Source: Octopus vulgaris
Lineage: Eukaryota
Length of the DNA: 64,000 bases
Direction of reading: 5' to 3'
Assembly (NCBI GenBank): GCA_951406725.2
Contig: OX597819.1
Location: 85,994,001 to 86,058,000 of the forward strand
This document shows, piece by piece, positions 2,191-63,908 of the stretch. The notes beneath the pieces were generated by a model that saw only the letters and a list, made by a program, of their open reading frames with translations, was not told the origin of the DNA and ran no database searches. Within the stretch, counting starts at the first letter, position 1. The number at the start of each line of letters is the position of its first letter. The translations under genes were made by a program, and so were the position numbers.

Positions 2191-2588
2191 AGCGAGCGAG
2201 CAGAATCTTTAGCACGCCGAGCGAAATGCTTACCGGTATTTCGTCTGCCGTTACGTTCTGAGTTCAAATTCCGCCGAGGTCGACTTTGCCTTTCATCCTT
2301 TCGGGGTCGATAAATTAAGTACCAGTTACGCATAGGGGTCGATGTAATCGACTTAATCCGTTTGTCTGTCCTTGTTTCTTCTCTCTGTGCTTAGCTCCTT
2401 GTGGGGAGTAAAGAAATAGGTATTTTGTCCGTATTCACGTTCCGAGTTGAAATTCCGCCGAAGTCGACTTTGCTTTTCATCTTTTCAGGGTCGATAAAAT
2501 AAATATCGTTCGAGTAGTGAGGTCGATGTAATCTACTTACACTCTCCCTGGAAAAATGTTGGTCTTGTGCCAAAATTTGAAACCAATA
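2191..2588 (+). mobile_element. Two tandem tRNA-derived SINE copies (family A, Nin/Deu-domain-like core); second copy 5'-truncated
   Basis: B-box-like GAGTTCAAATTCC followed by the core GCCTTTCATCCTTTCGGGGTCGATAAATTAAGTACCAG, which recurs many times in the window. Confidence 0.8.
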
Positions 2589-5213: not shown

Positions 5214-6641
5214 TAACAGCGATTAAACAATTTTTATCAAATAGCATTTTCTTCATATTTATTTCATATAAAATATGCATTTCAGTTATATTAAAATGAT
5301 AAGTTATTAGAAATGTATAGTATTATGTAAATCATTGTTTTAAAATGATTGATGTAAGAGCATGAAAAAAAGATTATTTCTTCTGAGAATACTAAATTGT
5401 TGAGTTTAGGCGAATATAATTTCATATACCAAAACAATAAAAGTTTATCTAATAATTGAACTTATAATAATTACAGGAATAAATAAGAAAGCAATCTTGT
5501 AAAGTCGGTTTGGTTGGTATGTTCAGAGGATGTTTTAAGTAGGAAACAATTCCAAACACTGTCGATGCACTAAGTCTGTTGACACACAGTATTATGTCTG
5601 CAGCTATAGGCAATATTTTAATGAGAACTATTGTGACTATACACTCATATCGTTCAGCTAATGATATTTCTTGTTCCAGGACTTTGCCAAGATATAGAAT
5701 TCGCATTACTGATCAAGAGCTTATAGTAAAATGCACTTTCAGAAAATTGGTCTATTTGAGAAAGAGATTTAAAAAAAATATTTGTCGAAGTTCTGTAGTA
5801 AGTCAATAATTCTCTACTTCTATTTTCTTTCCGCTGATAAATAACTTGTACATTCAACACTGACTGTACCTATAGCACCAAACAAACCTGCTAACGTACA
5901 GCAGCAAATATATAGAGTAAGTTCTTAAAGTTTGTCAGTTTCTGTTAGTTGCAACTGTCGTTTGAGTAGAATGTTTTGTTTGATTTACAAACTTTGATGT
6001 GTTGGTTTTATCATGGTTTTAAAAATAATGAAGTGAGAGTGATTTAGATCATGCTTAAGAAATATTTATTATCAGGTATCGAAATCATCTCTCCTAATCG
6101 GAAATTGTGCCGCCAACGGTAGAATTGACCTCCTCGGACCTGGAGGATGAAGAACCGTTAGTCTTTTATAGAGGTGGAAAAGATGGTGGAAGAATACTAC
6201 GAGGGAGTACCTTTGGCCTTCACACGGGATCCCGAATAGCCTCCGCATATAGCTGTGGAGGTCATAACGTTGCGCGTGTAACATAGGCTGGAGTGAATAA
6301 AAGAGGAATATCGTTCGTGGCCAGGTGATGCCAACTCGGAGTCCGCCTTGATTTTAAAGCATGGGCGATGGTAGAGTACACGGACACAAGCGATGATGAG
6401 GTGGAAAATTGACAAGAGGTTGAAAAGCCTCAGTGTTATAAAGTGTAAGAGATTCAGCACCTCATTTGTAAATGGACTAGTGTTGATTGTATATTGAATA
6501 TTTTATTGTATGTTATTGCATGTTATTATTTGTAATGGACAATTAAGTCCAATAATTGTAAAAACAGTCGGCCTGAATCTAGGTTGGAACAGACTGGCCA
6601 GCTGATTATCATCGAGACCAAGGGCTTCCCCCAAGGTATCG

Positions 6642-9071
6642 TCACAAGTGCCTCAACCTCAGCGCGTGCCTGTGCATCATCAGCCCACCCTTTAACTGTT
6701 GTTGGCAGCAAATAGAACGTCTCACAAGCGGTTTCGAGACCTTCAACAAGAAGCGGAAGAGCTGTCTTTTCAGCTTCATCAACCACGAATCAGGGCAGGA
6801 AACGGCGGTTAGGCGGTATGTTATGACCGATGCGATGAACACATTGGCCACCTCCAACCTCCCTCTCAGGCATAGCAACCGCCAAGACCTGGTCTTGACT
6901 AAGCGGGCCACCCTGCTCGCTACCTCGGCCCAGTTTTTCTCTATTTGGAGGCCTGGTCCAAACCAGACTCCGAGCAACTTAATCGGACCCTCCGTCCAAC
7001 GTCCCACGACGCTGTCAGGAGGTATCGACGTGTCTTTCCAGGTGCCGAGCTGCAAGCCGCCTGACTATTCATGATTAACCTCTGCGCCTGCTACCGTCTC
7101 GATGTTGAGATAAATTTCAAGGATCCACCTAAGGAGCCAAGACCCAGGCCGAACTGTGTCAGAACGGACACCAGGTAAAGATGGTCAACTCTATCAAAAG
7201 CCTTTGATTGGTGTAAATGGACCACTGCCCCTCCCTTGCTAGAATCATTATTAAACCCCTCTACGGTGTACAGAAGATGGAGATTATCCTGAATGGTTCT
7301 ACTGAGAACGGCACATGCATGTGCCTTCCCAATCAAGCCATCCACGACACACGCCAGTCTTTTCGATAACACTTTGGCCCAAATCTTCAGCTCTGTGTTT
7401 AGCAGAGTGATGGGCCGAAAATTATCAATGCAATTATCAATCTCGGAATTGCCAGTTCGCGTAGACATCCGCCAGCAGGTGCCCGAACAAGTCTGGCATA
7501 CTCTTATACAGTTCATAGGATAAATTATCCAGTCCTGGCGCCCTACCTGTGACGTAATCTGCCATAGCCTCAATTACCTCCTCAGGTGTGATCGGCCCTT
7601 TACAACACTCCACATCCTGCCCCGAGAGGCGCAGCAGCCCGGCGAAGAAGTCCGTTAGGTCCCTCCTACTGTCTGCACTCCTCCGAAAAACTGGGCAATT
7701 TGCTCCTGCAAGTCCTCACACATCTCCTGGGCATTGTCTATCAACTTACTTCCTTGATTCGTCAAAGATCGAATTGTGCCATCGTTGCCAAGTTGGGCTT
7801 CCATCACTCAGACCCATTCTGCGGCCTTGATTCATTCACAACCCATTATACGAATCCTAGTTCTGACAATACAACCCATATGTTGGGCTTTGAGGTGCTA
7901 ATTTAACGCCAGTCTCTTGGCCGTCACCTGACCTGCAGAGCCAGATTCCATTACTTCCTCTAAGTCAAGCTAATGATAATCCCTTCCTAGTCTCTCTAGC
8001 CACTAACCCTATGCTATATCTAATAGACACAAATTTAATGGCTTGCTTGAGGGCATACCGCCATTTGTTATTAATAATGGATCCGGTTAATGCCCTCTGA
8101 ATCAATTACTTAATCCGGTCTCTGTACTCCTTAATCGCCAAAAGGGAGGTATTAAGTTTCCAGTAGCCGGACCCCCTATTATATAACTTATCTATGTCGA
8201 GCGTACAGGTGATCACTGTAGCTGAGCGGAAAAAAACTATGGACACCTAACAATATCCTTATCTGCTTTCCTAACTAACACCCTATCTAGGTATGACCTG
8301 GATGATCCATCGCTGTTTGACCATGTCCACAATGGCGCGTTCGGAATTTCCAGCCTATAAGTATCTACTAGCTCAAAGCGGCTTAGCAGTTCCAGGAAGC
8401 AAGGATTACCTCTTCTATCAGAACACAAGCCAGCATAATCTACGCGTGTGTTGCAGAATTTGTTATAATCTCCTAGCACAACTAGAGAATGTGATGTACT
8501 GAGAAACTTCTCCAGGTTCCGAAAATATCCACTTTGCCCGTTTTCAGTGGGTGCATAAATTGCAACCAGTCTGATAATCTTACCACGGCTGAGCCTCAGG
8601 TGCACGCCGAGCAGCCTACCTTCTGGATCTGAAAAAAATAATTTTTCTCAGAAACCTGGTTTCTTTTTAACAGTATCAACACCCCACTCCCGCCAGTAGG
8701 ACAGCCCGGAGAGAAAAACTCTCGTAGCCATCAAATAGCAGGAGATCTCTTGACCTCCTTAACCGGGTTTCCCTAGAAACAATGACATCCAAATCACGCG
8801 ACTTGATGTCATTAAGGAAGCGACCTTGCTTCCAGCTTGACATCAGGCCACGCACATTCAAACAACCTACATGAATACAAGCCATCTACTTATCTTGGCA
8901 TCTTGTAACCGTCAAACAGCGGAGAAGATCTCTTGGGCCCTTCAACCGGGTTTCTGTAGCAACAACATCTAAATCCCGTGACCTGACGTCATTTAAGAGG
9001 CATTCTTGCTCCCAACTAGACGTTAGGCCACGCACATTTATACATCCAACGTGAATGCTTGACATGGACAT
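6642..9071 (-). pseudogene. LINE ORF2 (apurinic-like endonuclease + reverse transcriptase), disrupted
   Basis: VGCINVRGL, ETRL, LVAIYAP, VVLGDYN, SYLDRVLV, GYWKLN, NFRPITLLNTELKI, SKAFDRVDH, IKLLGVWF motifs. Confidence 0.9.
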
Positions 9072-9079
9072 ACCTTAGT

Positions 9080-10653
9080 CAGTGGTACTCTCTTTTTCAC
9101 TGGTTCTTGGGGTGGTATTCTGACATAGGTCCTTGTACATCGACTTGTTAAAATCAAGTCTTGGAGGAGCCATGTCAGTTGGGTATTAGTTTTTAAGATG
9201 TTATAGTTCATTTTATCTATTTTATAAATGGCAATATTTTCTGGAGTCTTACGGTGATGCTTGTAAATTGACGGCGTTGATATTTGCCTTAATTGTTTTT
9301 CAATTGTTCGTTATCATTGTTTATTGCAGTCATTATTTCCTTATATTCATTAGATTTTCTTGGACCTGATATCGTGGACAGATTGCCTGGGCTTGGAGAG
9401 TGGAGTGTGATGTGTGAGAGAGGAGGGAAATCCGAACTAGAGGAGCAAGTGGGGGACTTATCGCCGAGGGGAGGTGTGAATAGGATAGCGAGTAATCTTA
9501 TATCGTTGACTTTTGGAGGGAATAGTGGTGGGGTGGTGTAATTTTTCTTTGAGTGTCCCGGGGTTTTCTTTTAATTGTTGCAAGTTTAGGTTCGTTGTAA
9601 TTATTTTTCCTTTTTTTTTTGCTCTTACTACCGACCAACCGTCTTTTTCTCCGGCTTGTTGAACACCATCAGTGCCGGGGTTCTGCTGGTCGGTCTTTTG
9701 GTTTTGTTCTTTTTTCCTCTTCCTCTTTCTCCTTGCGGTTTACCCGAATGTGGCCTTTTGCACCACATTCGGAGCATCTGGGTTTGCTGCCCCCATCATT
9801 TAACCGCAAGTTGGTTTCTTCTCTGGTGTGGATGTTCTCAGCAATTTCTTTTTATGTCTGAGGGGCCGTTTGGATTATGATCTCAAGCCCTTGACCTCGC
9901 CAGTTCTGTTGTTGTATTCTGGAAGCTACAAGAATCTTGATTTGATCCTCAAATCCCATTAGAAGGGCTGAGATAATCCAGATGACATTTATTTCTGGAA
10001 GGATTTCCCCAATAACTATTTTGGGTGTTCTCCTACCCATATAAGTTGGTAATGAAATGACTTCATTGGTTTTTTATCGGTTGGGGCGAGTGTTTTATTG
10101 CATTTTCCTCATTTTTGAAGTACGCCACTACTGTGGCGTATCTTCTCCCACAGGTCAAGATCTCAATGTCTTGCCAGATGGGTTGTAGACATTTCTCGAT
10201 TTATTCTTTTGATGCCTCGTCTATTTTTTGTCTTTTATTATCATTGTCTTATATGTTATTATTTTTCTCTTTGTTTCTTCGATAAGTTCGTTAGGGAGGG
10301 TGGCTTTAACATCAAAACCTTCCCTTTCGAACATACATCTGTGTTGTCGCAGTGAATCTAGCTCTATGTTCAATTTATCTTTTCTCACACCATCTGCGGT
10401 AGTAAAATTAATCTTCTCTTTGTTGCCTTGTGTTGGGTTTATTTTTCCGTTATACATTTTATCGTTTTCAGCATTTATTTTCTCCTTCTTCGTTCCTTTT
10501 TCCGTTTACTGCATTTATGTGGTTTTCGTTTACATTTTCGTTCATTTTGTCTTGTTTTACAGTTGCTTTTTGGTTAGCTTGGTCAGGGTTAGAAGACTTG
10601 TCCTCCGAATTCATTATCACAAAAATATATATTTTCTCATATATTTTTTCCAA
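9080..10653 (-). pseudogene. LINE ORF1 (RRM-like region + zinc knuckle), disrupted
   Basis: GRRTPKIVIGEILPEINVIWIISALL..., then KPRCSECGAKGHIRVNR (CCHC knuckle with last Cys lost) near 9735-9780; several stops and frameshifts. Confidence 0.7.
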
Positions 10654-11446
10654 AATTTATTTCAAAAAATATTTTCCCCTCCGTAAGGAGGGGAACAACA
10701 GTCCACAACGTCTGTTAAAACAGAACGTAGAACAATAAGAAAAATTCAAAGTTTAACAATAAATGGCAACAATAACAATAAATAATAACGATTACTAACC
10801 AAATTCTTGCCAAGATAAATAAACCGCAGCGTGCTAACGTTTGTGCCAGCTCGCCGCCTTAAGAGATAAATTAATGTGATATTAATCTAACCTAAAGAAT
10901 TTTAAGTGCTGTGCTATAATGTTTTTGTTTCCCGCAGAGCACCCGTATTCGCATATTAAATATTCATTTCTAGCCTCGGCAAATACAAATTTGAAGGAAT
11001 AACGCAGTGAAAGAAGTCAATGTGTTACACAACGGCATGAGGCAGGATTTGAATTTGAATAAGAAAACAACTAATATTTGAAATGATACTGCACTGACTG
11101 GACATTGAAATTACATTGTAGATTCAAATTGCTATATGTAAATCTCTTTCCACGTAAAACTATTTGTGCAAATCATTCAGCTCATGTATTGTTACGCGTA
11201 TGCAGTAGTGAACATTAAAATATCACCCCATAAAAATCACTTTCACTTTTACCTCATTAAAGCGATTTCGTATTTTTGCTTAAGGAAAAAAAAAAAAAAG
11301 GTTATTTCTAAAGGGAAAAAAGGGTATTTCTAACCAAGTTCATACTTTCGCTCTGAATTGATAACCAAGTGCCGTTATTTTTTATTTAAAAAATATTACG
11401 GATAGTAAAACAAATACCAGGATTTGTTCAAAAGATTTCAGATATT

Positions 11447-13710: not shown

Positions 13711-14366
13711 ATTTCTACTAAAGGCGCAAGGCCTGAAATTTTTTTTGGGCGGAGGACTAGTCGATTACATTGACCCCAGTGTTTTACTGTTACTTAATTT
13801 ATTGACCCCAAAAGGATGAAAAGCAAAGTTATAGTCGGTGGAATTTGAACTCAAAAACGTAGCGATGGCGAAAATATCGCTAAGCATTTCGTTCAGCATG
13901 CTAACGATTCTGCCATCTCGCATATATCAATAATAATAATAATAATAATCATCCTTTCTAAGGCGACGAGCTGGCAGAATCGTTAGAACGCCGGGTGAAA
14001 TGTTTAGCGGAATTTCGTCTGTCTTTATGTTCTGAGTCAAACTTCCACCGAGGTCGACTTTGCCTTTTATCCTTTCGGGGTTGATTAAATAAGTACCAGT
14101 TACGCACTGAGGTCGATATAATCCACTTAATCTGTTTGTCCGTCCTATTCCTTTACTACCCACAAGGAGCTAAACACAGAGAGGACAAAGAAGGACAGAC
14201 AAACCGATTAAGTCGATTATATCGACCCCAGTGCGTAACTGGTACTTATTTAATCGACCCCGAAAGGATGATAGGCAAAGTCGATCTCGGTGGAATTTGA
14301 ACTCAGAACGTAGCGGTAGGCGAATACCGCTACGCCCGGCATGCTAACGATTCTGCCAGCTCACCT
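13711..14366. mobile_element. Cluster of three family-A SINEs: minus (13711-13922), plus (13962-14143), minus (14144-14366)
   Basis: Same core as 2191-2588 in alternating orientation, separated and flanked by (AAT)n. Confidence 0.85.
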
Positions 14367-23440: not shown

Positions 23441-23723
23441 ATTGGTTCACTTCTCAGTAACATACAATCACAATCATGTTTACCTATTTTTTCCCATTTC
23501 ATGTTTTTCCGTTTGCACTTTTGACTTCGATTCTGGTCCTGATCAATGGTTTGATGACGACTTACCGTACATTATCAGACACTCTTTGCTTGTCGTGCAC
23601 AACAACTTACCTGTTAGCAGTTCTGGTCTCGTTAACGCAGTTAAGATTATTACTTGAATTTGACGTCACTCATTTTGAGGTAATATTTATAAGGAGGCAA
23701 TCACCAGTATTTTTATCATAACA

Positions 23724-23957
23724 CCTATTTCTTTACTACCCACAAGGGGCTAAACACAGAGGGGACAAACAAGGAAAGACAAACGGATTAAGTCGATTAC
23801 ATCGACCCCAGTGCGTAACTGGTACTTATTTAATCGACCCCGAAAGGATGAAAGGCAAAGTCGACCTCGACGGAATTTGGACTCAGAACGTAGCTTTAGA
23901 CGAAATACGGCTACGCATTTCGCCCGGCGTGCTAACGTTTCTGCCAGCTCGCCGCCT
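23724..23957 (-). mobile_element. SINE family A, full length, low divergence
   Basis: Reverse complement of GGCGGCGAGCTGGCAGAAACGTTAGCACGCCGGGCG...GTGGGTAGTAAAGAAATAGG. Confidence 0.9.
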
Positions 23958-26929: not shown

Positions 26930-28810
26930 AGAAAATGTAAATCTAATATATCTAACACTACCTATAAGTTTTAAAAATTTAGAAAAAGAATCTTCGAAAT
27001 TTAAAAATGTATTTGATGATGGAGGAGCAATCGTAATTATGGAGGAAACAATTGCAATTACAATTACTTGATTTTGGAAGAACTTAACCAACATTTCTAC
27101 AAGAGGCTAAATAAAAAGGAAGATAAAAATACTATGAACGAAATAAAAACACTCGCCTCAAAACATTGAAATAGCCTTAGAGAATATGAGGTCGATTATA
27201 AAACGAACTTCTAAGTAAAGAGCATTATATTCTATGGACTAAATAAAATCCATAAAGCAACAGAAAATCAAGATAATATAAAAGGAAAAAATACAGCATG
27301 TGTTGAAATTCCAAAGCCTATTGACTTCAAACTACTTCCAATTCATTGCAGGACCACAATCAAGCGGGCAGCGCCTTGGATACCTAATAGATGTAATTTT
27401 AAAGCTTTTATACAAAATGGTGCCAAGCTATGTCCAACATGATACGGTCTTTCTGAATTACGTACCTGAAGACAATTCTGTTATTTTTGATACTAGATTT
27501 TACATCAATATTTGAAATAGTTTTTACACCAATATTCCACACGACATGTGAATTGAATATGTGAATTTGTGTTCGACAAAACACACAGACACAAGGAAAG
27601 ATTCTCAAACAATTTTATTTTAGAAGGATTGAAAGTAATACTTGAAAATAATCACGTCTTCTTTAACAATAATATCTATTTACAAATAATAGAAATGACA
27701 AGAATTACAAAAGTCGCTCGTCCTAACGAACACACGGAATGAGAGAATCGTTCTTAATCTACACCTAACTACCAGGAACTTTTAACCAACAATTCTCCAT
27801 TTATATATTAAAAAAAACCCACTTCGAAACGATATTTAGAGGTCTACTTCATACTTAGGAGCAAAAATCAAGAAGACTTAGAAATCTTTCATCCACACTT
27901 ATCTAACATACATGCCTAAATAAAATGTACTATGCAATGGCATACGAATGAACATATTTCTTTTTCAAGAGAATCACAATATAAAACAGCTTTTCAATAA
28001 ACCTACAGGCAGGCACACACCAGTACTTGAAATTTCATTCCTTCCATCTTTCACCTTTAAAAAAACATGCCCTTTATTATGGCAAAACGAGTTCGCATTA
28101 TTGCAATAGTCACAATATTTAGGGATAAATGACTACAAGACTTAAATGCATTCCTAGAAGAGCAAAGAAATCCTACTAGACTTATTGGCCCGGCTATTAA
28201 CAAAGTGAAAAATTTACCTACTAGAGAACAAAAATATAAAAATGAAAATGAACTCATATACATTCTCGTTTTCGTCACCAACAACCCAAGAAATAGCTAC
28301 AATCTTAATACTTCTAAAAGAGATCTCCCAAATCAACAGTCCTGAAATATGAATAAAGTTATGACAGAATCAGAAATTATTTATAGCAGATGCCAGGAAT
28401 CCAAACCAAAATTACTTTTAGCTAAAGCAAGGTAGCACAAGAAGCAACAAAGAGTGTTCAAAAATGTGCATTGAAGAAGGATAATAATTACATTTAAAAG
28501 CAACAATGTTTTAAAATCAGTGGAGATATGAATCGCAAATCCAGAAACCTGATATCACGTGCCTACAACGCGAAGAATACTGGATTAGAGAAATATATAT
28601 TTCATTAAATGAGAGTAAATGCATAAGCAACCAAATTCATGACCACTCCATTATAAACAGAAAATATGAACATTTTGGAAAAAGAGTAGCAAAAAAAACA
28701 TAATTCAAAATATTCCCATTTAAAAAAATATAGGCTGCAAATGAACTGTTTTGAAGAGCCAAAGTAGAATATTTTATTAAAAAATACACAACAAACCTGA
28801 ACAAAGTTAA
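26930..28810 (+). mobile_element. Decayed Penelope-like retroelement (RT + GIY-YIG endonuclease)
   Basis: FYGL.KIHK, IAGPQSS.QRL..LID.ILK, VPSYV..DT.FL, KVILENNHVFFNNNIYLQ, RY(L/I)(D/E)-like RT core, KPT.THQYL.FHS.H, and C-terminal MN.KSRNLI / LNER / FKIFPF GIY-YIG-like remnants; many stops. Confidence 0.75.
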
Positions 28811-34446: not shown

Positions 34447-37400
34447 GATAAAAATAAAATAATCAAAGAACTGAAAACCACAGAGCTCAAAATGGACCAC
34501 CGACTATACCTCCCAAGAATCAAAATAAACGAAATAACAACACCTATTATAAACAGCATAAACCTAGCCGTCACTGAACTGATAGCCACTGAATCAAAAA
34601 AAAGTGATATCACTGAGCTAAATAACTTAATATACGCAGCAGCCACTGCAGCCACAAAAGAAGCTGGATACTCACCCAAACCCGCCCAAACAGGAGTACC
34701 ACCACCCAAACAAACCCTGTGGATAAATAACATCCAAAACAAAATACAAAAAAATGAGAAAAGATCTGTCAATTCTTAAAGAAATCAGTAGACAATCAAC
34801 GCTACTGAGCAACAAAAAGAAAACAAAAATACTCCGCAAATACAACACCAGAGAAAAAGATTTACCTGAGATAAAAGAAAAGCTAAAGCAAGATATCCTT
34901 GCCAAAGCACAAAGGATCCGCCGGTACAAGAAACGCCAACGCTTCTTTGAAGAAAACAAAAAGTTCAACTCCAACCCCAAAAAGTTCTACCAAGAACTGG
35001 GCAAAAATAAAATAGAAGTCACTGCAGCACCAACGGCAGAAGAATTGGAAGAATTCTGGAGAGAAATATGGTCGGCGAACGAACCACCAAAAAAAAGGAG
35101 TATCAAAATAACAAACTCGGCATCTGAACAACTTTGGACCCCCATAACAACTGAAGAGGTCACCCAGGCACTGCAAAGACTAAGCAACTGGAAGGCACCT
35201 GGGCATGACAAGATCCCCAACTTCTGGTTGAAATATCTAACAGGAATGCACAAAAAGCTGGCTGAAAACTTTAACAACGTACCAGCAGAGCCAGAGACAA
35301 TGCCTGAATGGCTCACGAAGGGGAAAACCATCTTAATTCCCAAATCAAATGAAACAGAAAAACCAGAAAACTACAGACCAATAACCTGCCTCCCTACTAT
35401 GTTCAAGGCATTTACTGCAGTGATATCACAAAGGCTGAACAAGCACCTGGACGAAAACAAACTGTTCCCAGAAGAGCAGAAAGGATGCCGCAAGGGCTCA
35501 TATGGCTGTAAAGATCAACTAATGATTAATAAAGCCACAACTGAAGACAGCCACAGAAAGAAGAAAGGCCTCAGTATGGCCTGGATTGACTACAAAAAGG
35601 CGTTTGATAGCATCCTCCACACATGGATCCTCGAAACACTAGCCATTAACAAAGTAGCACCAACAATCATAAAATTCATAGAGCACTCTATGAATAAATG
35701 GCAAACAGTCCTACACCTCCAAACAAAAGAGGGACTCATGAAAACCAAAGACATCCCCATTAGAAGAGGAATATTCAAGGGAGACACGCTCTCTCCACTC
35801 CTTTTCTGCTTGGCACTGTCACCTCTATCTGATATGCTAAATAGAACTTGATGCGGATATAAATGTTACGGCAAAACGATCAGCCACCTTTTATATATGG
35901 ATGACCTAAAACTATACGCTGCAAATGACAAACAGCTGGAAACACTATTAAAGACAGTTCATGGATTTACCAAAGAAATAGATATGAAATTTGGATTAGA
36001 AAAATACGCGAAAGTAACCATGAAAAGAGGAAAACTAGTTAAGAGTAACAACATCATACTAGATAAAACCAATGAAATAAAAGAATTAGACCAAAGCCAA
36101 ACTTACAAATACTTAGGAATCCATGAACTAGATAAGACACAACACACACAAATGAAAGAGAAAATAAAAAAAGAATATTATAGACGAGTTAGATCAATAC
36201 TAAACACAGAGCTCAATGCTAAAAACAAGATAATAGGTATCAACACTTTAGCTGTCCCAGTTATAAGTTACAGCTACAATATCCTTAACTGGACACGAAA
36301 TGAACTGACCAAAATAGATAGGAAAACAAGAAAAATAATGACAGGATCTAGGATGCATCACCCAAAATCTGACATAGAAAGACTATATATACAACGTATA
36401 GAAGGTGGTAGAGGCCTTATACAGCTGGAAAACTACTATAAAATAACCACCATAGGACTGCAAAAATATCTACTTCAGAAGGAAGGAAAACTGATCCAGA
36501 TAGCGGCAAAACACGAGCAAAACAAAAAACTGTTCTCAGTATTTAAGGAAGCTGACAAATACAAACAAGAAGTCATACCACCTAATAAACATGAAGAAGA
36601 AGAAGAAGAAGATGAAGAAACAACAAAAGCTATAAAACAAATGAAATCCAAACTAAAAATAGAACAGCAACGAATCATGATAAAACGATGGCAAGAAAAG
36701 CCCCTTCATGGTAAATACTGGACTAAACTAAACGCAAAAGAAATAGACAAAGAAAAATCCCAGCAATGGTTGAGAAGCTGAGGACTCAAAGCAGAAACAG
36801 AGGGATTTTTAATTGCAGCACAAGACCAAAGCCTCCCCACCAGAAATTACCAAAAACATGTAATGAAAAGAAATATTACAAGTAACTGCAGAATATGTGG
36901 AGATGGACAAGAAACAATAAATCATATTATCTCTAGCTGCCCAGTCCTGGCTAAGAAGGAATATATTCACAGACATGACAGAGTTGGAACCTACATACAT
37001 TGGAAGCTATGCCAACATTATGGAATAACAACAGAAAAAAGATGGTATAGGCACACACCAGAAAAGGTCACAGAAAACGAGAAAGCAACCATACTCTGGG
37101 ATATGCCGATACACACAGATAGAGAAATGAAGGCCAACAGACCAGATATAGTTGTTAGAGATCATGAAGAAAAAAATGCTTTCTAATTGATGTATCAATA
37201 CCGGCTGATGACAACGTGTCTCTAAAAGAAATGGAGAAACTCTCAAAATACAAAGACCTGGAAATAGAGGTAACTAGTATGTGGAATCTGAAAACAGAAA
37301 CAATTCCTATCATAGTAGGTGCATTAGGCATGATAAAAAAATATTCAGACAAATACATAAAAAAACACTAGGACTTACAAACACATATAACATACAGAAA

Positions 37401-57559: not shown

Positions 57560-58965
57560 TTGGTAAATAACTCGCTCCTATTTTCACAAATTCCCATCGT
57601 CCAACATGGTATTGCTTAGAGTGGGCAGTATAAAAGTACGCGGCCTGGGGGTCGTCATGGAAGCAAGCTCGCTTGCTTAATGACCTCAGGTGGTGAAAAT
57701 TACACGTAATAACTGCCAGTGAGACCAGCATCACGGACACGCGCACCTGCGCCTTACCACCCATTTTCGAAGATTATGAGATCTTTGCATCTCTTGGTCG
57801 ACTGGGAATAGGGGCAGAGGTAGGGGTGTTGTTCAGGAAAGTTCTGGATCTCGAGATACGGTCGGTCTTTCTGGACCCGGAAGGTAGGATATTGGTCCTG
57901 GACGTGAATGATAAACGAAGGCAGTGCCTTTAGACTGGTCGCTGTGTACGCACCGACCGGAGTGGGACATCTGGATTTCTTTAGACGTTTGGAGGTCTTT
58001 TTTGGGACGTCTCGCTCCTTAGAATTAACGGGCGACTGGAAAGCCATCTTGGATGTTCATAGGTACTGGGTAGAACTAGCCGACAAGAAAGTGGGGTGCG
58101 CAAGCCTCGCTAACCTGCTCAGTCGTTTCCAATTAGTTGACAGGTTCAGACTGGATTTGCCGAAAGCTTCAATGTGAACATAGGCAATGGCATTTGGTCA
58201 TCCAGATCTTATCTAGACAGGGTACTTTGTAGGCAAAGTGATAAGGATAGCATAAGTTGTCCACAATTTGAAGTTGTCAGCTATACAGACCACAAATTTG
58301 TAATCTGTATGGTCGACCTAGGTAGGCTCAATAAGCAGGGCCACGGATACTGGAAGCTAAACGCGTATTTCCCAGCGCGTTCATTGCTGACTTGTGGAGT
58401 ATCGTCGGACAGTTATTGTTACGTGTTGGACGGGTTCAGCTATCGTCCGATTTTATTGTGAAGATTGCCCCCTCTCCTTCCTTTGGCTGAGAAAGAAAGG
58501 CAGTTTTTCTCTGTCTGGTGGCTATGACGGAAGAGGTTGTACGGGGGACACGATTGAAAGGGTTGAAAACAGGTACCTTTCTCTTTGGCCAGGGCCTCAT
58601 TGATTTTTCATGTTCCACTTGAGAAGGAAGGTGAGACTGCAGAGGGTGGTGCTATCACCCAATAGGTTTGTCGAAGAGTGGGTGAATGTAGCAAGGATAG
58701 CCCATGTGGGTGGGCCTACACTAAGTGTGCGCACGTAGGCCGGATGGAGTGAGGAGGAGAGGGGTGCCTATCTGAGGTGCCTTGGTGCTAAGGGCCCAAA
58801 TTGGGTGAGGTTGTTTTGGTCGCGTCTTGGTTAATCACCCACAATAGGGAATTATATATTAATTGTTGTATTTGTTGGCAGTTTACACGTTTAAACTCAC
58901 TGTCCCGTGTCTGTGTGTCGTCCTCTATGCATTGTGTTCGGCCCTGGTGGTCAATAAAGAAAGAA
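57560..58965 (+). mobile_element. Internally deleted Tx1/L1-like element (endonuclease + 3' end)
   Basis: FLDPEGRILVLDV, FRLVAVYAP, GDWKAILD, SYLDRVLC, YTDHKFV, GYWKLN; ends with AATAAAGAAAG then (ATT)n. Confidence 0.8.
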
Positions 58966-60461: not shown

Positions 60462-60812
60462 CGAGTACGCAACTTTAAGACTATTAAAACGGTTGTTATG
60501 AACAGAAATAACATAGTACTTCTGTATCAAAGAACATTAGAACAGTTTTTATATTTATGAATTACTCCAATAAGAAGATTATGTTTGAAGCAAAACGTGC
60601 AGGTAAAGCTATGTTTACTGATATTCCCCATCATTATAATCACCATAAATCCCTGTGCATGTCATGCTCATAAAAAATACTTCTGTTTGACTTGCCACAG
60701 ACAGACCATATCAAAAGGATTTAATTCACAAATTTAGTCTAATATTTAGTCTATATTTATATAAAGACTAAATATTTAGTCTATATATATATTCTATCTA
60801 TCTATCTATCTA

Positions 60813-60873
<61 letters not shown>

Positions 60874-61036
60874 AGTGGTTGTATAAAGTCAACAAAACGT
60901 GACAGTCCCGTAGAGGGAATTACAACAACGCTATATAGCCCTAGGAAGCATCGACGCTTCCTGTCGACTTTGACACATTTTCTATGTCCTTATATTCGCA
61001 AAGGGGAGGCAAGCACCCCCACCAGCTAGGAACAGC

Positions 61037-61086
61037 AACCTGAATACATGCATGATTCTGGGTATTGCCCATCATCAGTTCAGGTT
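61037..61086 (-). ncRNA. Minimal type-I hammerhead ribozyme motif (left arm)
   Basis: Minus strand AACCTGAA CTGATGA TGGG CAATA CCCA GAAT C ATGCAT G TA TTCAGGTT; GAAT instead of GAAA. Confidence 0.7.
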
Positions 61087-61684
61087 AGCGTGTCCTTTTC
61101 TCTTTATTATAGACACAATGGTCTGATTACATAGAGGGGACAAAACAAGACAAAACGGGAACATAAAACAAATGATGTATGATTGATGGAGTTATTAATA
61201 ATTAATGAGAATGAAACTGTTCGACTCACTCCCGCTGTGAGACGTGCAGTGAATTTTTTCACATTAATTCTCAATACCATCGGGTCTCACTGTGAGGCGA
61301 AACCGCGATGGTCTTCTTTATCAATATCGTAAACTTTATCATTAATTGTTCACATTAGTATTTGTATTTTCCATTTCTATTTTATCTTTTTTTTCCAGCG
61401 TTACATCTTCCTTTTTTTTTCATATGAAATTTGACAGACAAATAACACAAGTTCAATTCTCAGTTCATTTGCAGTTCAATTCATTTTTTTTTTTAAACAA
61501 TTAGTTGCGTTACACTCATAATTATACTTACCGTCTACGTTTTTTTTTCCACATTTATTATTGTCACATTTCTTTTTTCTCTCGTTCTCTTCTCGAGTCT
61601 ACTGCTTCGTTCATCTCCGTTTGTGAGAAGCTGCTCGAAAGTTCGTGTGAGGCCGACGTTTGTCGGTGAAAGAAGAAACTGGAA

Positions 61685-63035
61685 ATGAAGAGCTACGCTG
61701 AAGCGACAGCGGAAGACCCGGAGAAAGAGAAATTAAGAAAGCTAACACTGAAGTCGTTGAATTGGGACCCTGAAAAGATGAAGAGATACTTGAGCAAAGT
61801 AGAAATAGAAGCAACGAATGTGAAGCTTGTAATGCCGGAGGAGAAAAAGAAAATGTTAAGGGATTTAACAAGAGTATACAGAACATTCTCCAACGAATCC
61901 AGGAGGATTGAAATAGCACCGGAATTTCAAATAGAAACAATGGTATCATGCTGTATGGATAGAGTGGTTTTCATAAATAGAGGAAGCCAATACGGCACGA
62001 TAAATATTACATTTGAAAATGTGGAGGCGGAAAAGAAGAATGACCAAGTGATAGAAGGAAATAGTTGGACTCTCATTCCCGACAAACCAGGAAAAAAGTT
62101 GGGGAAAATTAGAGTTGGAAGAATCCCACCCATAATAGAGCCCGAATGGGTAATAGTGGGAATCTTCGGAGAGAACTTGAAGAAAAGAAGTACAAAGTTA
62201 AACGTTCTAACAGTGAGTAAATCACAATGTTTGAATTTTTGAGGTTATGAAATTGAAGCAATTTGCGCTATAACCGAAGAATACTATCAGGAAATACCGG
62301 AAACGGTAGAATTACCGACTGGTGAAAAGTTGGTGATTGTGCTACAGGGAAGACCCCCAAAATGCTACTTGTGTGGCATAAGGGAGCATATGCGAAGGAA
62401 ATGCCCGAATACAGAAGTAGAAAAAAGGTTGGAAACAACAGTGGAAGAAAAAGCAGCCGATGAATAGAAGATGGAGAACAATAATAGAACGAATATGGTG
62501 AAGAGAAGGAAGAGAAAACGTAAAAAGTCGCCAACTTTGGAAGAAGCTAAAAAGAGTAAAGGAGCGGCAGAGAATTTAACTTTTCAGAACGGTAACCCCG
62601 AGGAGCCAACTATGGAAGAGAGAGAGAGATGAAACTGCAAAACGAAGATGAAACAGCGAGAAAATTTAGAGTTATGTGAGCCAAAAGATAGATAACAGAT
62701 GGGAGAGACGCATTTGAAAAAGTCACCAACTTTAGAAGAAACGGAAAAAAAGTAGTGGAATGGCAGAGAATATAACAGACCAGGACGGTAACACTGAAAG
62801 AATATATATGGACGATATGTTGAGAGCGATGAACCTGCAACGCGAAGAAGTGTGGCAGTGGTTTAGGCTCAAAGAAAAAGAACATGGAAGAGAGGTATTT
62901 GCAGTCGGGAGAAAATTCAGATTACACAAACGGAGACGATCGAAGCAGTGGTCTCGAGAAGAGAAACACAAGAAAAGAAAGAGAACGAGGGGGAAAGAGA
63001 AATGTAACAATAATAAATGTGGAACAAAAACGTAG
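61685..63035 (+). pseudogene. LINE-ORF1/Gag-like nucleic-acid-binding protein (RRM-like + CCHC knuckle), with stops
   Basis: MKSYAEA start; reading through TGA 62240 gives ...LQGRPPKCYLCGIREHMRRKCP (CX2CX4HX4C at 62363-62404); basic KRRKRKRKK tract; collinear with the ORF1 at 9080-10653. Confidence 0.8.
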
Positions 63036-63467
63036 ACGGTAAGTATAATTATGAGAGTAACGCAACTAATTGTTAAAAAAAATATATATAAATTGAACTG
63101 CAAATGAACTGAGAATTGAACTTGTGTTGTTTGTCTGTGAAATTTAATATGTAAAAAAAAAGGAAAATGTAAAGCTGGAAAAAAAGATAAAATAGAAAAG
63201 GAAAATACAAAGGCTAATGTGAACAATTAATGATAAAGTTTACGATATTGATAAAGGAGACCATCGCGGTTTCGCCTCACAGTGAGACCCGATGGTATTG
63301 AGAATTAATGAAAAAATTCTCTGTTCGTTTCACAGCTTCATTCCCATCAATTATTAATCACTCCATCAATCATACATCATTTGTTTTATGTTCCCGTTTT
63401 GTCTTGTTTTGTCCCCTCTATGTAATCAGGCCATTGTGTCTATAATAAAGAGAAACGGATACGCTAC

Positions 63468-63513
63468 CCTGAACTGATGATGGGCAATACCCAGAATCAT
63501 GCATGTATTCAGG
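63468..63513 (+). ncRNA. Minimal type-I hammerhead ribozyme motif (right arm)
   Basis: CCTGAA CTGATGA TGGG CAATA CCCA GAAT C ATGCAT G TA TTCAGG; predicted GUA cleavage after 63507; GAAT instead of GAAA. Confidence 0.7.
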
Positions 63514-63733
63514 TTGCTGTTCCTAGCTGGTGGGGACGCTTGCCTCCACTTTGCGAATATAAGGACACAGAAAATGTGTCAAAGCCGACAGGAAGCGTCG
63601 ATGCTTCCTAGGGCTATATAGCGTTGTTGTAATTCCCTCTACGGGACTGTCACGTTTTGTTGACTTTATACAACCACTTTATCGCTCCACCACCGCTCAT
63701 GTCTCGTTCAGACACTTAGAAATTCATTATTTC

Positions 63734-63908
<175 letters not shown>

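Follow-up and report, generated by a model that had tools for sequence, protein, structure and literature searches.

A probable LINE derivative nested within a hammerhead retrozyme, with proposed Penelope-type recopying, at a fold-back locus of Octopus vulgaris

Introduction

Insertions of Penelope-like elements (PLEs) are recognized by an adjacent inverted and 5'-truncated copy, a one-sided tail and a TA target (PMC8557442), and animal retrozymes have been proposed as dependants of PLEs (10.64898/2026.07.22.740005). Among long interspersed nuclear elements (LINEs), the Tx1 clade contains target-specific members, such as Keno in U2, Tx1L in Tx1D and SINEU in Mariner-N4 (PMC4494074, PMC4640811). 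Here we describe a fold-back locus in 64,000 nucleotides of the Octopus vulgaris genome (assembly GCA_951406725.2, contig OX597819.1, positions 85,994,001–86,058,000, forward strand), referred to throughout as the window, in whose coordinates all positions are given. In this locus two arms surround an open reading frame (ORF) with a CCHC knuckle. We consider it probable that the locus is a nested pair, a HAL1-like ORF1-only derivative of a LINE lying within a ~355-bp non-coding hammerhead retrozyme, and that the decayed derivative, seated at the predicted start of the retrozyme, was recopied together with it by a Penelope-type reverse transcriptase (RT).

Results

Structure of the window copy

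An initial annotation, made from the letters alone, had described ~750-bp arms that are near reverse complements with two ~20-bp indels. This description holds: the arms (60870–61625 and 62925–63682) align with 698 matches, 35 mismatches (95.2% identity) and 48 gap columns, which include one 18-nt indel and one split indel of ~20 nt. The right arm is made of two parts, the 3' untranslated region (UTR) of the LINE up to ~63456 and then retrozyme sequence from 63457 to 63735 (Table 1). The left arm is, as had been suggested, an inverted copy of the element's own 3' end, and meets the main copy at 61625/61626 with a few bases of microhomology. The setting in (TA)n was likewise confirmed, on both flanks, whereas the end of the element lies not at 63678, as first placed, but at 63735, beyond a one-sided tail of 57 nt. 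AATAAA occurs at 63444–63449 within the 3'-end motif of the family. Full copies possess a 5' UTR longer by ~19 nt and a 5' target duplication; the latter is gone in the window, and is kept in L002 and, for the older subfamily, in L007–L011 (fetched loci carry L numbers).

The CCHC ORF is real, its knuckle at 62363 matching PF00098 (E 5e-4), but it is neither intact nor continuous into the right arm. It is interrupted by TGA at 62240–62242, by TAG at 62465–62467 and by further breaks downstream, and the only frame overlapping the right arm is a separate stop-to-stop frame of 99 aa (62736–63035). In agreement with the initial annotation, searches for RT, endonuclease and transposase gave zero matches within the element; the RT and GIY-YIG domains of an autonomous PLE are among those absent, and the view of a non-autonomous retroelement is supported. 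Each arm of the window copy has decayed by ~3%, and its fold-back is a by-product in a dead copy.

Table 1. Features of the window copy, in positions of the 64-kb window.
Feature	Position	Strand	Remarks
Left (TA)n/(CTAT)n flank, insertion target	60782..60873	.	sequence
Inverted 5'-truncated copy of composite 3' end (LINE 3' UTR and retrozyme, without tail)	60874..61625	-	
Left-arm type I hammerhead, with GAAA>GAAT core change as on right	61039..61084	-	core 61078
5' UTR of ORF1-only element	61626..61684	+	
Broken LINE ORF1	61685..62632	+	ATG 61685; CCHC knuckle from 62363
Internal ~200-bp duplication, decayed C-terminal part of ORF1	62549..62797	+	common to family
ORF1 remnant end and LINE 3' UTR, ending in family 3'-end motif	62925..63456	+	
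3' copy of target-site duplication from entry of LINE derivative into retrozyme	63457..63471	+	
Downstream part of ~355-bp non-coding retrozyme unit, family A	63457..63735	+	
Right-arm type I hammerhead	63468..63513	+	core 63474-63480; GAAT 63494-63497
57-nt tail, right side only	63679..63735	+	
Right (TA)n/(CT)n flank	63736..63908	.	

The host retrozyme is abundant without the ORF

Each arm does contain a type I hammerhead motif, as annotated, although Rfam returned no hammerhead match in this region of the window. The right motif has a palindromic helix III (63498–63505) and a cleavage site after 63507. An intact catalytic core is lacking in both arms, where GAAT stands in place of the GAAA seen in 34 of 35 distinct motifs collected from fetched loci, and the predicted fold of the window hammerhead pairs the core away. 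Because of GAAT instead of GAAA, we think that both are probably inactive. Across the retrozyme families the hammerheads display compensatory changes in their stems, and 32/35 have the palindromic helix III that marks dimeric hammerheads; since pairing was a criterion in choosing the motifs, this comparison is lenient.

A search with 63200–63678 gave 2,607 first-look candidates, of which 40 were scored; here, as in all the locus samples that follow, the loci are top-scoring subsets of larger families. In many of those scored, the matches to the 3' part begin sharply at 63457. The ORF-free units are ~355 bp long, partly in tandem, and end at 63674–63683 (4/12) or 63724–63735 (8/12). This host unit thus has what defines a retrozyme, a non-coding tandem unit of 150–400 nt with a type I hammerhead. 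When loci were picked by the upstream, promoter-bearing part of the unit (n = 30), 28 ran uninterrupted into the hammerhead, one had a deletion, and in one (L298/L046) a different ORF1 family had entered at the same family-A site. In three sequencing runs, contig depth over the hammerhead module was about two orders of magnitude higher than over the ORF, as summed depth rather than copy number. The family-A retrozyme is far more abundant without the ORF, and what had been suggested to be a single protein-coding ribozyme element is instead a LINE-derived insert in a non-coding host.

ORF1 belongs to a LINE lineage

We used the unbroken natural copy L006 as the query for ORF1 (11,775 candidates, 135 scored). 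The window ORF1 family was found directly upstream of ORF2s encoding APE and RT (L092, L093/L206, L205 and L219–L238), relatives of which carry zf-RVT. This APE+RT+zf-RVT architecture fits the L1 group; no named reference appeared among the 120 matches listed. The 80 loci fetched held 110 ORF1 units. A LINE-type 3' end could be recognised in 67 of them, among which 66 lacked ORF2. ORF1-only elements and full LINEs have a 3'-end motif in common and both make target duplications (14 bp at L094, a solo copy). The ORF1-only elements therefore show the features of a HAL1-like derivative, namely an ORF1 homologous to that of an autonomous LINE, no ORF2, a common 3' end and target duplications.

In a midpoint-rooted tree of 97 sequences and 221 columns, from which units with <165 aa in one frame were excluded, the ORF1s truly linked to an ORF2 are set apart from three large ORF1-only clades. 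The ratio of non-synonymous to synonymous substitution rates (dN/dS) is 0.14–0.39 among the deep ORF1-only families and 0.48–1.23 inside the window family. Between the two subfamilies of the latter, 8 synonymous and 26 non-synonymous differences are fixed, against 33 and 89 that are private to single copies; pN/pS, the corresponding ratio of differences, is 0.83 between subfamilies and 0.69 for private states (Fisher p 0.83, with low power from 34 fixed differences only). These values suggest an old, HAL1-like lineage whose window branch, within this low power, appears to be without recent purifying selection, and the ORF1 of the window family is likely passive cargo.

A sequence search of PDB with ORF1 matched the zinc knuckle only; a protein atlas placed it with CCHC and ZCCHC3-RNA-binding-domain clusters at 0.87–0.92, which is a lead only, and the protein database matches (4 and 15) were all uncharacterised Octopus vulgaris proteins. 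Intact young elements do occur, with 1134-aa ORF2 frames in L225 and L238 and ORF1-only copies of 504 aa. Young ORF1-only families (L091–L098) also form head-to-tail arrays, often beside full-length LINEs at the same site, in a HeT-A-like arrangement; the 504-aa family has a unit of ~1.95 kb, and that of L098 a unit of 1.86 kb at 98%.

Several candidate associations were rejected. Four apparent ORF1+ORF2 links within the window clade (L152, L162, L175 and L149) failed because a second ORF1 intervenes in three, and because L149 has an ORF2 from a family that uses a different ORF1. The RT at L110, which had looked like an ORF1–PLE RT fusion, is a member of an abundant stand-alone family, and a GT..AG stretch before the ORF, resembling a Penelope-style intron, consists of the target duplication and the LINE 5' end.

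Elsewhere in the window, a decayed full LINE of the same group lies at 6569–10830 (−), with an ORF1 homologue at 9741–10400 and APE-RT at 6569–9065. At its 5' end it begins within the head of a common repeat resembling a short interspersed nuclear element (SINE), the target also used at L191; this is possibly insertion at an RNA polymerase III start. This abundant repeat carries the 3'-end motif of these LINEs (window 2370–2416, 14110–14152 and 23685–23728; L002, L095 and L222) and could be their partner SINE. Two more fragments of LINE ORF2 lie at 35105–36058 and 57649–58720.

Many insertions lie at predicted transcription starts

A hexamer is found upstream of the U1 and U2 small nuclear RNA (snRNA) genes, at −57 to −59 in 19/19 distinct U1 and at −57 to −61 in 25/25 distinct U2 sequences, these being array paralogues of a few types. 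Retrozymes of families A, B, C, D, G and H possess this U1/U2-type motif as well; their predicted start is ~58 nt downstream of it and 25–40 nt ahead of the hammerhead core. By sequence, the retrozyme motif matches the U1/U2 upstream regions both in kind and in spacing. A strict hammerhead scan for promoter spacing (13 cores, three with the motif) proved too stringent and was not used.

Most of the full-length LINE copies sampled end at these positions. Of 20 such copies picked by ORF2 similarity, 16 retained a 3' end: two lay where U2 begins (+1), 11 immediately preceded a hammerhead core (10 flagged, and L238 by eye), two adjoined a retrozyme-start duplication that had another element behind it, and the remaining one lay elsewhere. 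Rfam confirmed U2 at L224, its only match among the 16 target loci. In the wider ORF1 sample, a hammerhead core no more than 90 nt away was flagged for 24/67 3' ends, and these cores belong to several unrelated retrozyme families; inspection by eye showed the flag at L149 to be false and at least five degenerate cores to have been missed. The motif stood 40–78 nt upstream of 25/51 non-tandem sites defined by a duplication, compared with 7.2% of control windows. For the full-length family it was present at 12/15 sites, 10 of them at exactly −55/−56, matching U2. In the window family the duplication begins 67 nt past the motif of family A, ~+9 from the predicted start, and diverse ORF1-only families insert at the matching position of retrozymes. 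At L004 the window ORF lies in family C, where it has acquired a new duplication while keeping, on its 5' side, a remnant of the one from family A, as expected if its RNA starts at the host promoter.

We tentatively propose that a radiation of LINEs and ORF1-only satellites finds RNA polymerase II starts, of the snRNA type and with TATA boxes, by position, through ORF1 binding the initiation complex, and that it has exploited first the snRNA-type promoters of hammerhead retrozymes and then the Penelope pathway. On this reading the octopus elements would form a parasitism of three layers, with one RNA open to mobilisation by two unrelated RTs. The same nesting may have arisen from sequence specificity of the LINE endonuclease, or from homology-guided re-insertion of read-through transcripts, without any recognition of promoters, and this we regard as possible though somewhat doubtful. 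Duplications of the full-length family at U2 and at families C, G and H start with a similar pyrimidine-ATCG stretch; Tx1-clade targeting has been ascribed to the endonuclease, and co-transcription with the target can strengthen it (PMC4494074). Against this, the ORF1-only sites vary in sequence and yet lie 54–70 nt from the motif (13 sites, with one false match at 73), and 6 of 10 hand-picked motif-free sites follow a TATA-like box at 26–39 nt, compared with 4–8% of controls, three of the six being one repeated promoter. The jump between retrozyme families at L004 also speaks for position.

Three further observations concern such sites. ORF1-only insertions lie 26–29 nt after a TATA box at the 3' junction of L187 and at L183, the latter with a CCAAT box upstream. 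The sequence downstream of L187 resembles by eye the start of a mariner transposase. At L163, no more than ~1 kb separates an ORF1 unit from a U1 gene of the U1 array (G000:C18:48.97-49.21 Mb).

Fold-backs vary from copy to copy

A search with the spacer yielded 43 matches among the 40 scored of 72 candidates (genome of 2.8 Gb in 227 contigs), including 13 near full-length matches at 81–100%, the window among them. Across the 30 family loci fetched, other copies have shorter inverted pieces, direct pieces or none, and arm length and junction vary at every locus. The fixed inverted ends of a fold-back or terminal-inverted-repeat element were not found: the 750-bp left arm is present at 1/30, and an arm–ORF–arm unit with shared boundaries does not recur, an outcome that the initial annotation had itself named as refuting its reading of the arms. 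Fold-backs of other extent do recur. L016 and L029, of the same family as the window, have shorter ones with a duplicated 3' end; at L104, 676-bp arms (98%) flank another ORF1 family, with an ORF1 31% identical; ORF-free retrozymes likewise form inverted pairs (L305/L313 and L309/L310). At L019/L042 there is an inversion without a duplicated 3' end.

The window arms have five private substitutions in common, the hammerhead change included, with 23 and 17 of their own; other pairs of copies have 0–4 private states in common. Sequence comparison modestly favours one template or a single event for both arms.

A GC-rich hairpin lies in the LINE 3' UTR (window 63255–63292 and 61266–61303), with similar hairpins in L106, L108 and L201, and one sequencing run has a fold-back joint at this hairpin. 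Loci L009, L011, L012, L013, L018, L020 and L021, all on contig C17, have common flanks and a second ORF1 element back to back; these are probably segmental duplicates and thus not independent insertions.

Composites lie mostly in TA or CT runs, with Penelope-type geometry

Nine of 11 young composites of LINE derivative and retrozyme have no 5' duplication and are 5'-truncated at varied points; the older L008 and L010 do have their duplications. The 3' ends of the composites fall into two classes, 63664–63687 and 63724–63735, the same as those of ORF-free retrozymes, and mostly adjoin TA or CT runs. At the window locus the inverted copy is truncated at its 5' end, the tail is on one side only, and the target is a TA repeat. 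Mobilisation by Penelope, as the initial annotation suggested, is in keeping with this insertion structure; no partner was found in the one PLE family compared. Intact PLE families with RT and GIY-YIG are abundant in the Octopus vulgaris genome.

Among these PLEs, one very young and abundant family (L111–L140; 20,772 candidates, 90 scored) has intact RT, CxxC and GIY-YIG, ends at (TA)n and bears a variant hammerhead-like core; another has 781-aa open frames (30 GIY-YIG loci). The window contains a broken Penelope-like RT fragment at 27068–28216 (+), 27% identical to a Neptune-like family.

Discussion

Proposed origin of the locus

We envisage three steps. The U1/U2-type motif of a retrozyme unit, evident in its sequence, would set a predicted start ahead of the hammerhead. 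LINEs with APE and RT (L1/Tx1 group) and their ORF1-only derivatives insert in sense at or just after this predicted start, presumably by the LINE enzyme, leaving target duplications of 14–21 bp, and the inserts would then be transcribed from the host promoter. Finally, a transcript that reads past an uncut hammerhead to the retrozyme 3' end would carry the cis signal of the retrozyme, and the machinery that moves retrozymes could reverse-transcribe the composite RNA into TA microsatellites. The products would be truncated at the 5' end, tailed on one side and accompanied by a neighbouring inverted copy, and the window would hold one of them. Because the geometry of insertion is that described for Penelope-like insertions, the composite RNA was likely copied by the retrozyme-moving enzyme, and Penelope-type recopying of the composite as one RNA would explain the inverted second copy in the window.

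Several observations weigh against this origin. Retrozyme starts are predicted rather than mapped; 26/51 duplication-defined sites lack the motif, some of them being missed tandem units or false duplication matches; and the motif spacing in families A and B puts +1 ~5–6 nt after the 'ATC' that is aligned in D, G and H. The label Tx1 for the full-length LINE family is a provisional assignment, and all counts come from top-scoring subsets of larger families. The window tail, at 57 nt, is longer than the 30–40 nt given in PMC8557442. An autonomous PLE with retrozyme sequence was found at 0/30 loci of the one Neptune-like family compared. Arm-to-arm identity (0.94) is not above that of the arms to other copies (0.91–0.95), and the junction 61625/61626 was not seen in contigs of four sequencing runs.

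It is unlikely that the LINE enzyme made the composites on its own, by 3' transduction of the retrozyme and twin-priming inversions, without any copying of the Penelope type. The ORF family did remain mobile by the LINE route after nesting (L004), the inversion of L019/L042 is of the kind that twin priming gives, and the missing PLE partner fits such an account. Twin priming, however, does not duplicate the 3' end, which is duplicated in the window, L016 and L029; composite ends match those of ORF-free retrozymes and lie at TA targets, not at promoter sites; and inverted pairs also form among retrozymes that contain no ORF.

The left arm might instead stem from a separate insertion nearby, from an inverted duplication that arose locally at a later time, or from misassembly. 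We regard this as quite unlikely, although the unexceptional identity of the arms and the unseen junction would fit it. Because 35 substitutions and indels separate the arms, they are not a read-level duplicate. The private states they have in common, with the hammerhead change among them, count against independence, and the arm, which has no tail, joins directly onto the truncated 5' end, as in L016 and L029.

We consider very unlikely the model of the initial annotation, a discrete protein-coding ribozyme retroelement with fixed inverted arms and an ORF cooperating with its hammerheads: its arms, hammerheads and CCHC gene are real, the ORF adjoins a hammerhead in many copies and families, fold-backs recur and the composite spreads as a unit, but the single fixed architecture is largely refuted by arms that differ at each locus, the hammerhead module exists mostly ORF-free, the ORF segment has a LINE 3' end and a target duplication as its borders, the same ORF is found in three retrozyme families, and the subfamily pN/pS gives no sign of selection on the ORF.

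Implications

The system behind the locus bears on how animal retrozymes are transcribed, with a predicted U1/U2-type promoter inside each unit, on what moves them, since here a cargo shows Penelope-type insertion geometry, and on how APE-type LINEs choose their sites, by position at a transcription start and not by sequence alone. It also suggests that ORF1-only elements persist because ORF1 may carry the targeting. Intact young elements are available, and these ideas can therefore be tested directly; a LINE directed to promoters would also be attractive as a means of inserting genes at chosen sites.

Comparison with known systems

We found no report of LINE targeting of retrozymes, of insertion at U2 +1 or of retrozyme-borne LINE cargo in the literature covered, outside which lie most subscription papers and the Repbase reports. 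The main text of PMC13282606 contains neither 'ribozyme' nor 'snRNA', and its supplements and repeat library may hold these families.

The ORF1-only elements resemble HAL1 (half-L1) in having ORF1 only, a 3' end in common with autonomous LINEs and target duplications (PMC5753468), and in forming long independent lineages under purifying selection, here the deep families of low dN/dS. They differ from HAL1, which derives from mammalian L1, in a CCHC-type ORF1, in position-specific insertion at predicted starts and in their secondary spread as retrozyme cargo.

The host unit resembles the metazoan retrozymes without long terminal repeats in its length (350–390 bp in mussel), type I hammerhead, partial tandems, lack of coding capacity and presumed PLE dependence (PMC7229834; 10.64898/2026.07.22.740005). 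The octopus units differ in carrying a U1/U2-type motif, in serving as LINE targets and in bearing a 1.8-kb LINE insert. An snRNA-type promoter is said to occur in newt satellite 2.

With Penelope-like insertions the window copy has in common its 5' truncation, adjacent inverted copy, one-sided tail, (TA)n target and 3' hammerhead (PMC8557442), whereas it lacks RT and GIY-YIG and has the longer tail. In Chlamys-2_cBra the upstream zinc-knuckle ORF belongs to an RT-coding PLE, whereas the CCHC ORF of the window comes from a LINE.

The full-length family behaves like Tx1-clade members in that these are APE-type LINEs inserting into multicopy RNA genes or mobile elements, often as head-to-tail arrays (PMC4494074, PMC4640811). 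The octopus site differs, being U2 +1 and its counterpart in unrelated ribozyme repeats. Keno, by comparison, inserts inside U2 and not at +1. Position-specific insertion is known from Ty3 and Dictyostelium TRE5-A, which are tethered by transcription factors at Pol III promoters, and HeT-A is a Gag-only element of telomeres; the octopus elements are like these in their fixed distance from a promoter and in an ORF1/Gag-only partner, tethering being hypothetical here. The parts of the locus are each known in kind, as HAL1, as a retrozyme, as PLE insertion geometry and as Tx1-type targeting of other elements.

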